A stretch of 64,000 nucleotides of DNA from Escherichia coli (GCF_044647545.1 NZ_CP172818.1); one strand, 5' to 3'; counted from the first letter of the stretch, positions 59,794 through 61,160 are shown. Numbers and translations are program-made. The notes: generated from the sequence alone by a model not told the origin.

Positions 59794-60246
59794 ATGAATA
59801 ACATACAAATAAGAAACTATCAGCCTGGCGATTTTCAGCAACTATGCGCTATTTTCCTTAGAGCGGTTACGATGACCGCCAGTCAGCATTATTCACCACA
59901 ACAAATTGCCGCCTGGGCGCAGATTGACGAATCTCGCTGGAAGGAGAAACTCGCGAAATCACAAGTGCGGGTTGCAGTTATTAATGCACAACCGGTTGGT
60001 TTTATTACCCGCATTGAACATTATATCGATATGTTATTTGTTGAACCTGAATACACCCGACGCGGGGTTGCCAGCGCTTTGTTAAAACCATTGATTAAGT
60101 CTGAATCCGAACTTACGGTGGACGCCAGCATAACCGCAAAGCCCTTTTTTGAACGTTATGGTTTTCAGACAGTTAAGCAGCAGTGCGTTGAATGCCGGGG
60201 AGAGTGGTTTACTAATTTTTATATGCGATATAAACCGCAACATTAA
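59794..60246 (+). CDS. yafP: GNAT-family N-acetyltransferase
   Basis: 150-aa ORF; acetyl-CoA-binding motif RRGVASALL. Confidence 0.88.
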   Translation: MNNIQIRNYQPGDFQQLCAIFLRAVTMTASQHYSPQQIAAWAQIDESRWKEKLAKSQVRVAVINAQPVGFITRIEHYIDMLFVEPEYTRRGVASALLKPLIKSESELTVDASITAKPFFERYGFQTVKQQCVECRGEWFTNFYMRYKPQH

Positions 60247-60424
60247 ATCCAGCTTGCAATGAAAATAACGCCCGCCTAGTATGTGTGCGTTTTCTTATTC
60301 CACAAACTGCAAGGAGGTAAATCATGACAAATCCTTTATCAATGACTCTTTGCAGACCTTTCCAGGATTAATTCTTTTTTTCTTGCCCTGGATTCGTCTG
60401 CCATTTCCTGATTTTTATTCATAA

Positions 60425-60691
60425 ATGGAATGGTACATGGGCAAATATATTCGTCCCTTATCCGATGCGGTATTTACCATCGCATCTGATGACCTGTGGA
60501 TCGAGAGTTTAGCGATCCAACAATTACACACCACGGCAAATTTACCCAACATGCAACGCGTAGTAGGGATGCCAGATTTACATCCCGGACGCGGCTATCC
60601 GATTGGCGCAGCGTTCTTCTCCGTAGGCCGTTTTTACCCGGCAAGACGTCGCGGTAACGGTGCTGGAAACAGAAACGGGTCGCTACTCTGA
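60425..60691 (+). pseudogene. ykfJ: RtcB-like RNA ligase N-terminal fragment
   Basis: 88-aa ORF with RtcB-type motif GMPDLHPGRGYPIGAAF, then terminates; overlaps prfH. Confidence 0.7.
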
Positions 60692-61160
60692 CACACTGCG
60701 TTCGGCGCTGATTTCTCTGGATGGCGATAACGCATGGGCTCTAAGCGAAAGCTGGTGTGGCACTATCCAGTGGATTTGTCCGAGTCCGTATCGGCCTCAT
60801 CATGGGCGCAAAAACTGGTTTCTGGGCATTGGGCGTTTTACCGCTGATGAGCAGGAACAATCCGACGCGATCCGTTATGAGACGCTGCGTTCGTCGGGGC
60901 CGGGCGGTCAACATGTCAATAAAACCGACTCGGCGGTACGCGCCACGCATCTGGCATCCGGTATTAGCGTGAAGGTTCAGTCAGAGCGCAGTCAGCATGC
61001 TAACAAACGGCTGGCGCGATTACTGATTGCCTGGAAGCTGGAACAACAGCAACAGGAAAATAGCGCGGCGCTGAAATCGCAGCGGCGAATGTTCCATCAT
61101 CAAATTGAACGTGGCAATCCGCGACGGATATTTACCGGGATGGCTTTTGTTGCTGTGTAA
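60660..61160 (+). CDS. prfH: peptide chain release factor homolog RF-H (likely N-terminally truncated)
   Basis: 166-aa ORF with GGQ motif ([20 protein letters not shown]). Confidence 0.85.

Follow-up and report, generated by a model that had tools for sequence, protein, structure and literature searches.

A short open reading frame between yafP and ykfJ

The stretch of Escherichia coli DNA analysed here (64,000 nucleotides of GCF_044647545.1, NZ_CP172818.1; hereafter the window) carries dinB-yafN-yafO-yafP, a 178-bp spacer extending from the yafP stop at 60246 to the K-12-style ykfJ start at 60425, and then 'ykfJ', 'prfH', pepD (minus strand) and gpt. The open reading frame (ORF) lengths of 'ykfJ' and 'prfH' equal those of the K-12 pseudogenes, in agreement with the initial annotation, which had called the pair a remnant; in strains with the intact gene, PGAP places the start of RtcB2 at the ATG at 60437. 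The spacer contains a small ORF (sORF) of 15 sense codons, MTNPLSMTLCRPFQD, whose ATG at 60324-60326 follows the Shine-Dalgarno (SD) sequence AAGGAGG (60311-60317) after a gap of 6 nt. The heptamer, the gap, the start, the 15 codons and the stop were all confirmed in the window sequence exactly as initially annotated. Directly 3′ of the sORF stop lies TTCTTTTTTTCTT (60372-60384), and 65 nt separate the stop from the rtcB2 ATG in E. coli. From the comparative and folding models described below, the sORF is predicted, with a probability of about 0.7, to be a translated cis-acting leader of the rtcB2-prfH operon, orthologous to PA5471.1 of Pseudomonas aeruginosa, with ribosome passage acting as the switch. 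The leader probably switches on rtcB2-prfH when ribosomes stall.

The spacing pattern AAGGAGG-N4-9-ATG occurs once in the 64-kb window when both strands are considered, and shuffled windows contained it 0.63 times on average, with at least one occurrence in 50 of 100 shuffles. The SD-ATG motif by itself is thus no more than chance expectation, and the weight of the argument lies in the comparison of genomes.

Conservation of the leader within Escherichia

The spacer was found in approximately 5400 of 5426 complete E. coli genomes, and its 101-nt core (60300-60400), which is unannotated, differed by no more than one mismatch in 5373 of 5398 E. coli records. In five comparisons with other Escherichia species and lineages, the 95-nt section that runs from the SD to the 3′ arm of helix H1 (see below) was 100% identical in four and 96.9% identical in the fifth. 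In the same comparisons, the 3′ half of yafP was 91-95% identical and the 5′ coding region of rtcB2 92-97.5% identical. Because the identity of the 95-nt core exceeds that of the flanking coding sequences, the leader is under stronger constraint than the neighbouring genes. The sORF corresponds to 253239-253286 in MG1655 (NC_000913.3), where no feature is annotated between yafP (end 253161) and ykfJ (start 253467). The leader is identical in the window and in strains with an intact operon, for example FDAARGOS_497 and CE10; the window differs from K-12 in that K-12 carries an extra 127-bp ERIC-type element at 60417/60426, which is absent from the window.

The sORF accompanies rtcB2-prfH across genera, a plasmid and metagenomes

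Loci carrying rtcB2 were gathered by genome scan, exact-protein look-up and plasmid tblastn. All Enterobacterales, Pseudomonas and Ralstonia loci sampled, and an IncC plasmid, have an ORF of 13-15 codons whose GCAA(A)GGAGG-type SD is located 6-9 nt before its ATG. The set comprises four Escherichia species or lineages, Klebsiella (two), Citrobacter, Salmonella, Kosakonia, Cronobacter, Entomohabitans, Intestinirhabdus, Providencia, Proteus, Limnobaculum, Leminorella, Pseudomonas (two), Ralstonia and the IncC plasmid. Conservation in Enterobacteriaceae, which the initial annotation had named as a way to check the sORF, was therefore borne out: the sORF is present in every Enterobacterales locus sampled, with an invariant ATG. 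The 19 genome and plasmid leaders have ORFs of 13-15 codons, and the metagenome leaders have ORFs of 12-19 codons; internal length differences are multiples of three. The peptides encoded in other taxa are MNTDFQNALCRPSQE in K. oxytoca, MTLYSLNALCRHFQH in Salmonella, MTYTTLITLCRLTQE in Cronobacter, MTTINMNTLCGQSQK in Proteus, MQQIQLNILCRRIQD in Limnobaculum, MQALITLCRSRLA in Pseudomonas sp. YH-1, MIQFSTLCRLRLA in P. aeruginosa, MRYTVPPLCGPRLG in Ralstonia and MQNTSTSFAGLVR on the IncC plasmid.

Across genera the distance from the sORF to the rtcB2 ATG is 108-140 nt, and it is larger where a repeat or another insert is present. At least five different gene neighbourhoods surround the leader together with rtcB2-prfH; the neighbours are dinB/yafP...pepD in Enterobacteriaceae and other genes in Providencia, Proteus, Limnobaculum/Leminorella, Pseudomonas, Ralstonia and the plasmid. 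As the sORF is found beside rtcB2-prfH in these differing neighbourhoods, it travels with the operon. The comparison also bears on the possibility of a chance ORF behind a chance SD-like heptamer, which the expectation of 0.63 such patterns per window would seem to invite. The persistence of ORF, SD, length and position across genera with unalignable flanks excludes chance, and conservation, the covariance model and covariation likewise refute this explanation, whose probability is practically negligible.

A metagenome scan with an RtcB2 alignment yielded 80 loci of 96-48% identity, and prfH directly follows rtcB in 74 of them. The sORF was scored as an SD followed by an ORF of 8-24 codons containing UUUGCRG, a criterion that would miss bacteria not using SD sequences. 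Both sORF and motif were found in 6/6 loci with at least 70% RtcB2 identity to E. coli, in 22/30 loci with 55-69% identity and in 10/16 loci with 52-54% identity, that is, in 38 of the 52 loci with at least 52% identity, and in 1/23 loci below 52%. The most distant metagenome loci showed no leader by this SD-based criterion.

Other leader types were seen in the metagenome set. Three loci (L046, L061 and L072) have a second family of leader ORFs approximately 185 nt upstream of rtcB, encoding a conserved peptide (MQKNTTSLW[A/T]GSAVAGL..., 19-20 amino acids) and devoid of UUUGCAG, and two loci (L050 and L074) have yet another type (...GLVF...). Judging from these sequences, the rtcB2-prfH operon may be served by several unrelated leader types.

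A putative sigma70 promoter precedes the leader (Table 1). Of 17 taxa, 16 have the pattern TTGCnn-17-TAnnAT at 40-60 nt ahead of the sORF ATG, in surroundings that are otherwise unalignable; the E. coli copy scores 8/12, below the threshold of a generic promoter scan. From this layout we infer that the operon has its own promoter and that transcription would start near 60289, approximately 35 nt before the ORF. Behind the -10 element (60283-60303 in the window and the equivalents elsewhere), the initial 10-15 nt are conserved in character, with a G/C-rich block that gives way to a run of U (GTGTGCGTTTT, ACGCGCACTTT, GCCCGCGATTTTT, TTCGCCGCTTTTT). A 47-codon ORF beginning MCAFSYSTNCKEVNHDKSF (60281-60424, plus strand) starts inside the -10 element and spans the whole leader in another frame; its conservation seems unlikely, given that loop lengths differ between species by numbers that are not multiples of three.

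The sORF is the counterpart of PA5471.1

The armZ gene of P. aeruginosa (PA5471) encodes an RtcB-like protein and lies upstream of PA5470 (prfH), the pair being under the control of a 13-residue leader peptide, PA5471.1, located approximately 250 bp upstream (PMC3516279, PMC12057347, PMC13041342). PA5471.1 couples ribosome stalling to armZ-prfH expression, and deletion of the leader or early stops in it result in constitutive expression (PMC13041342, PMC12057347). Expression of armZ-prfH is raised by ribosome-targeting drugs, by suhB or cca mutations, by the early amber mutation Q3Am and by leader deletion (MexXY/ArmZ reviews).

At the P. aeruginosa locus of our collection (L024), MIQFSTLCRLRLA is encoded 254 nt upstream of armZ, and Gln3, Phe4 and the length of 13 amino acids agree with published PA5471.1. 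This leader has in common with that of E. coli the SD context GCAAAGGAGG, CCTTTGCAGGC, GGTCTGCC and ATGGATTGG-N-ATG, and it is longer by approximately 140 nt in the interval from the ORF to GGTCTGCC. A covariance model was built from 15 leaders, with those of P. aeruginosa, Ralstonia and the IncC plasmid excluded, and it found the excluded leaders at E = 1e-4, 2e-3 and 2e-8, respectively; the P. aeruginosa match of 26.3 bits is lowered by the insert of approximately 140 nt. The model has a single match in the window; among the 80 metagenome rtcB loci it has matches with E < 1e-4 in 22, all of which end precisely at rtcB ATG+5. Because the leader elements are common to both and the covariance model built without P. 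aeruginosa finds its leader, the E. coli 15-codon ORF is, on comparative sequence evidence, the orthologue of PA5471.1.

Three helices in the leader RNA

RNAalifold applied to the alignment of 15 leaders returned three abutting helices, designated H0, H1 and H2 (Table 1). The core of H1 pairs 60354-60357 with 60396-60399 and 60362-60366 with 60387-60391, and two G-C pairs (60352-53/60400-01) form an alternative extension of H1. The minimum free energy (MFE) fold of the single sequence agrees with the consensus, with a z score of -1.5, so that the energy alone is not significant.

Table 1. Positions of the leader elements and of the operon remnant, counted from the first letter of the window
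Feature	Position	Strand	Sequence or content	Support
Putative sigma70 promoter	60254..60282	+	-35 TTGCAA 60254-60259, 17-nt spacer, -10 TAGTAT 60277-60282	
H0 5′ arm	60309..60316	+	GCAAGGAG; overlaps the sORF SD AAGGAGG	RNAalifold consensus; in single-sequence MFE fold
Leader sORF, predicted	60324..60371	+	ATG, 15 sense codons MTNPLSMTLCRPFQD, TAA 60369-60371	Conserved ATG, length and position
H0 3′ arm	60346..60353	+	CTCTTTGC; codons 8-10, holds invariant UUUGC	
H1 5′ arm, inside sORF	60352..60366	+	GCAGAC 60352-60357, CCAGG 60362-60366; stop codon 2 nt later	
H1 apical loop	60367..60386	+	Pyrimidine-rich; sORF stop and T-rich stretch; 3′ end is candidate H3 strand TTGCCC 60383-60388	
H1 3′ arm	60387..60401	+	CCTGG 60387-60391, GTCTGC 60396-60401	
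H2 5′ arm, rtcB2 anti-SD	60400..60408	+	GCCATTTCC; abuts H1 3′ arm	RNAalifold; compensatory changes
H2 3′ arm, weak rtcB2 SD region	60427..60434	+	GGAATGGT	RNAalifold; single-sequence MFE fold
rtcB2 start and candidate H3 partner	60436..60444	+	ATG 60437-60439; GGGCAA 60439-60444 for TTGCCC 60383-60388	
Operon remnant	60437..61160	+	rtcB2 5′ end fused to prfH 3′ part by a deletion of about 1 kb; K-12 'ykfJ' and 'prfH' pseudogenes	

When 34 leaders were aligned to the model, 90.1% of cells were paired, as against 30-57% with slid partners, and double changes occurred in 11 pairs and 46 cells, as against 15 ± 2.9 cells in shuffled data (0/500); as the alignment was fitted to the model, these counts lean towards it. 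In H1 (helices 2 and 3 of the 34-leader count), 8 of 9 pairs change on both sides. A motif-anchored search made without the model found the 6-bp lower stem of H1 fully paired (6/6) in 19/19 genomes, P. aeruginosa among them, and in 27/28 distinct metagenome leaders, with about a dozen covarying stems such as GCGGGC/GCCCGC, GCAGAT/ATCTGC, GCAGCC/GGCTGC and GCAGTC/GACTGC. In H2, the hairpin in which the rtcB2 SD is sequestered in the manner of erm/cat-type leaders, one pair shows a compensatory A-U/U-A exchange (17 sequences versus 6), and 82.5% of cells are paired. H0 has 97.9% of cells paired among the 34 sequences, with one-sided, wobble-compatible changes only (C-G to U-G seven times, A-U to G-U three times), and this helix is plausible rather than proven.

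Leaders with no inserted repeat keep a constant spacing of 30-42 nt between the H1 3′ arm and the rtcB2 ATG. The H1 loop measures 20-32 nt and up to approximately 170-190 nt in P. aeruginosa and Intestinirhabdus, and inserts are confined to the loops of H1 or H2. Inserts of approximately 140-190 nt entered the H1 apical loop independently in two lineages, Intestinirhabdus alba (positions 1221-1500 of L020) and P. aeruginosa (positions 1289-1460 of L024); prfH of Intestinirhabdus is split into two ORFs (144 and 61 amino acids), and that copy looks decayed. The H2 loop, which separates the rtcB2 anti-SD from its SD, is a hot spot for insertion of ERIC/IRU-type repeats. It holds a full 127-bp copy in K-12 (approximately 1720-1850 of L002) and in Escherichia sp. 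MOD1, an insert of approximately 50 bp in Escherichia sp. E1V33, and approximately 60 nt at the same place in K. spallanzanii, and the spacer is longer by 55 or 127 bp in many E. coli genomes. The 127-nt insert pushes the rtcB2 anti-SD away from its SD partner by 127 nt.

Rfam 15 contained no match to the leader near a gathering score, the best being STnc350 on the minus strand (21.8 bits versus 60, E = 0.61), and nothing was found on the leaders of Salmonella, Klebsiella or P. aeruginosa. Upstream of the Salmonella leader promoter, on the minus strand (positions 1180-1303 of L012), V_AS5 scored 39.9 bits versus a gathering score of 96 (E = 9e-6); this match is an imperfect ERIC-like palindrome unrelated to the leader itself. 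A pairing of CAGGA (60363-60367) with TCCTG (60406-60410) was also considered and dropped, as it is not conserved in Klebsiella or Salmonella.

Constraint acts on the RNA and on the presence of an ORF

The heptamer UUUGCAG does not vary among the leaders, irrespective of reading frame. It stands in frame 1 in 15 distinct metagenome leaders (xUU-UGC-AGx, Leu/Phe/Ile-Cys-Arg/Ser), and in frame 2 (UUU-GCA-Gxx) in 13 others, where it gives Phe-Ala-Gly/Val, and in the IncC plasmid leader. The first 7-8 sORF codons are unconserved, and Arg is replaced by Gly exactly where the stem covaries, from GCAGAC to GCGGGC or GCGGAC (Providencia, Proteus and Ralstonia). Approximately 45 distinct leaders nevertheless retain the ATG, an ORF of 12-19 codons and an in-frame stop whose place within the H1 loop is fixed, and all of them have a perfect 7-8-mer SD at optimal spacing. 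The reading of an invariant UUUGCAG in two frames, together with an ORF that is always kept across it, places the constraint on the RNA. The conservation signature is that of an sORF whose translation matters and whose product does not; probably the peptide sequence is irrelevant and ribosome passage is what counts.

A 15-residue peptide functional in trans, or a nascent peptide causing arrest in the exit tunnel, would account for the similar C-terminal halves of the Enterobacteriaceae peptides, (L/F/I)-C-R-x-x-Q-x, for example LCRPFQD/E. These codons are, however, the arms of H0 and H1, and the change of reading frame, the substitution of Arg and the unconserved N-terminal half described above all speak against such a product. 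When all leaders were compared, no amino-acid conservation beyond that explained by RNA structure was found by the test for a trans-acting small protein, and no conserved arrest peptide was found, the peptides being unrelated outside the RNA-constrained codons. We consider a functional peptide very improbable. The initial annotation had offered a leader peptide or a small protein as alternatives; the former is supported by the association with rtcB2-prfH, the homology to PA5471.1 and the overlap with covarying helices, and the latter is not supported, given the unconserved N-terminal half and the use of two frames.

The opposite possibility is a structured RNA in which the SD-like sequence and the ATG are merely arms and loop of H0, no translation takes place, and any regulation would be exerted by a protein or small RNA binding UUUGCAG/GCAAAG. 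Conservation at the nucleotide level, the sequestration of part of the SD in H0 and the lack of an E. coli translation signal in the profiling supplement searched are all compatible with it. It does not sit well with the ATG, the stop at a fixed place and the 12-19 codons retained in approximately 45 leaders despite their unconserved first codons, with length steps of three, or with the perfect and optimally spaced SD in all leaders. Start-proximal nonsense and missense mutations in P. aeruginosa, moreover, behave as expected of a translated PA5471.1 ORF (MexXY/ArmZ literature). An untranslated RNA element thus appears improbable, although less so than a functional peptide, and the conserved ATG, stop, length and frame argue indirectly for translation of the sORF.

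A candidate switch and its output

The proposed leader RNA would start at its own promoter, with H0 holding the ORF SD and codons 8-10, codons 10-14 forming the 5′ arm of H1, and H2 hiding the rtcB2 SD. In a healthy cell, ribosomes would load on the strong SD, reach the stop and occupy the H1 5′ arm; the freed H1 3′ arm, including UUGCCC, would then pair with the rtcB2 start region and extend H2, and the operon would be off. Damaged or inhibited ribosomes would instead stall at or near the leader start codon and allow H1 to form, which would make its 3′ arm unavailable, so that the rtcB2 initiation region could open more easily and be expressed. Ribosomes cleaved by colicin E3 stall at the start codon (PMC13166195), and K-12 ykfJ has been reported to be inducible by 4-azaleucine (PMC3516279, a secondary source that leaves the RNA or protein level unstated).

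Folding with ribosome footprints masked, a computation of equilibrium folding, gave the following results. With a footprint on codons 9-16, UUGCCC (60383-88) pairs with GGGCAA (60439-44) and encloses H2; with a footprint on codons 1-5, full H1 forms. The UUGCCC:GGGCAA duplex (H3) has z ≤ -1.6 versus shuffles in 12 of 17 taxa. Opening rtcB2 from -15 to +12 was computed to cost on average 3.0 kcal/mol more when the ribosome occupied the last sORF codon than when it occupied the start codon, and the difference had the predicted direction in 14 of 15 genomes and, among independent metagenome leaders, in 21 of 22. The proposed logic agrees with the genetics of P. aeruginosa, in that a completed ORF corresponds to the off state and a ribosome absent or stalled at the start to the on state; it also fits the reported stalling of colicin-E3-cut ribosomes at start codons, and it would explain the maximal strength of the SD. 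An erm-like model, with the rtcB2 SD set free by ribosome stalling, was replaced by this comparison of opening energies, as codon-by-codon masking leaves H2 paired and produces small changes only.

Several observations weigh against this switch or limit its reach. In Limnobaculum, Leminorella, UBA3516 and the IncC plasmid, H3 is either missing or no better than chance, and the contrast of 3 kcal/mol has the unconstrained state as its sole null comparison. The rtcB2 SD is mostly paired in H2 at every ribosome position, the shift in unpaired probability being small and not seen in all taxa. H0 lacks double compensatory changes, and its conservation could reflect the SD or other needs. The sORF is absent from the ribosome-profiling supplement of Stringer 2021, which has no entry near 253239, and from the apidaecin supplement. 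The published P. aeruginosa model is attenuation with a terminator, whereas the 65-nt E. coli spacer has none, so that the mechanism may not transfer. Finally, the regulated genes are deleted in this strain, and no present-day function follows there.

Transcription attenuation is the alternative closest to the translational switch, with the same element and the same sensor: full translation would permit a terminator or pause hairpin, with the U-rich tract at 60409-60419 behind it, and a stalled ribosome would keep it from forming. A terminator formed after full translation of PA5471.1, and prevented by stalling, is the published model for P. aeruginosa (MexXY/ArmZ reviews). A U-rich tract lies 8-12 nt after the H1 3′ arm in most taxa, and the reported induction of ykfJ is assigned by its secondary sources to neither the RNA nor the protein level. 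The generic promoter/terminator scan, however, found no terminator-like site between 60372 and 60436; the U-rich tract is the loop of the covarying H2 and does not adjoin a GC stem; and H1, with a loop of 20-190 nt, would be a poor terminator. The P. aeruginosa terminators could sit between the ORF and the H1 3′ arm, where that leader is approximately 140 nt longer than the leader of E. coli. Two terminator candidates in E. coli were dropped on the same grounds, the T-rich stretch behind the sORF, at which the scan finds nothing, and H1 itself, to which no U-tract is adjacent. The initial annotation was right that a T-rich stretch follows the stop; it belongs to the apical loop of H1 and does not form a terminator tail. 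As no terminator is detectable and the U-rich tract is the H2 loop, a translational output is favoured for the compact enterobacterial form, and attenuation is unlikely there, though clearly less remote than an untranslated RNA.

A wider and more tentative proposal, for which we see the odds as unfavourable but better than those of attenuation, is that the leader is the damage sensor of a closed repair loop ancestral to rtcB2-prfH in Proteobacteria. Ribosomes with 16S rRNA cut in the manner of colicin E3 would remain able to bind the perfect SD of the leader but would stall on its start codon, this stall being the signal for induction, and the induced PrfH and RtcB2 would release and repair them, including the leader-bound one, thereby resetting the switch. 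UUUGCAG/GCAAAG and the three helices would be the RNA logic of this loop, which P. aeruginosa would later have co-opted via ArmZ for MexXY efflux.

The operon remnant and other copies of rtcB2-prfH

The junction of the deletion that fused rtcB2 to prfH (Table 1) lies at 60640-60660 in the window, and a K-12-type rtcB2-prfH deletion has been described (PMC1586002). Of 5426 complete E. coli genomes, 2715 retain the deleted segment; since the others are without it, about half of E. coli has a perfectly conserved leader in front of a ribosome-repair operon that is dead. For this genome the leader is a relic, though intact; for the species it is a live element.

Divergent copies of the operon occur on plasmids. 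The IncC plasmid p2247421-T5-MAC_1 of K. pneumoniae (positions 1028-2912 of L026) carries rtcB2-prfH with its own leader MQNTSTSFAGLVR beside sul1; its RtcB2 is 54% identical to chromosomal RtcB2, and the same pair occurs in E. coli NZ_MG450360.1. As rtcB2-prfH adjoins sul1 on conjugative IncC resistance plasmids, ribosome repair genes travel with resistance genes. On plasmid pOB3b_02 of Methylosinus trichosporium (positions 1033-1164 of L027), an alphaproteobacterial rtcB-prfH pair with 41% RtcB2 identity is preceded by a 14-codon ORF, MKAIISRSLRSPTA, which has a GAGGA SD, lies 132 nt upstream of rtcB and is followed by GC-rich hairpins. The Methylosinus leader region contains no UUUGCAG and no match to the covariance model, and its ORF may be an analogous leader.

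PA5471.1 was reportedly described originally by Morita et al. in 2009 (J Bacteriol 191:4966). This kind of element has thus been known since 2009, and its enterobacterial counterpart may be unmentioned to date, in so far as the searchable literature goes, which did not cover the text of Morita 2009. The searchable papers on E. coli RtcB2-PrfH (2022-2026) mention no leader, promoter or upstream regulatory element and no 'ArmZ'. In the same literature, no paper contains both 'ArmZ' and 'RtcB2', papers with both 'leader peptide' and 'prfH' are on Pseudomonas or are general reviews, and the string of the E. coli leader peptide does not occur; the sORF is also without RefSeq annotation. Papers on RtcB2-PrfH describe proteins that rescue and re-ligate colicin-E3-cut ribosomes, and papers on Pseudomonas MexXY/ArmZ treat the stalling leader as a peculiarity of the regulation of that pump. 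The presence of the same conserved element in both provides a testable model for the induction of ribosome repair in enterobacteria and suggests that the ArmZ leader predates the connection with efflux. It also adds an unannotated, near-invariant ORF, taken to be translated, to the E. coli map (MG1655 253239-253286), and approximately 45 natural sequence variants are available for dissecting the switch.

Comparison with known leaders

The E. coli leader resembles PA5471.1 in its operon partners (an rtcB-family gene followed by prfH), in the SD context GCAAAGGAGG, in the promoter layout, in the invariant CUUUGCAGR (Leu-Cys-Arg) and in GYCUGCC and AUGGAUUGG before the gene start, and the ORFs are of nearly equal length (13 codons for PA5471.1, 15 in E. 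coli). They differ in the distance from stop to gene, which is 65 nt in E. coli and approximately 210 nt in P. aeruginosa, and in that the E. coli leader is without a recognisable terminator, so that the output in enterobacteria is possibly a different, terminator-less one, translational instead of transcriptional. The regulated proteins differ as well, E. coli RtcB2 being known as a 16S rRNA ligase and not as a MexZ anti-repressor.

The leaders of toiL-topAI and of genes for ABC-F and efflux resistance also sense ribosome-targeting antibiotics via a small upstream ORF; they are unrelated in sequence and control other genes, some via Rho-dependent termination. The erm, cat and cmlA translational attenuators are similar in that the RNA of the leader ORF is a helix arm, the downstream SD lies in a hairpin, and the system responds to impaired translation. 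In contrast to these, the E. coli leader has no conserved arrest peptide, and the classical 2:3 anti-sequestor pairing was not found in it. The proposed logic would also be inverted, in that a ribosome translating the 3′ half of the leader would keep the operon off, and its absence from there would turn the operon on.

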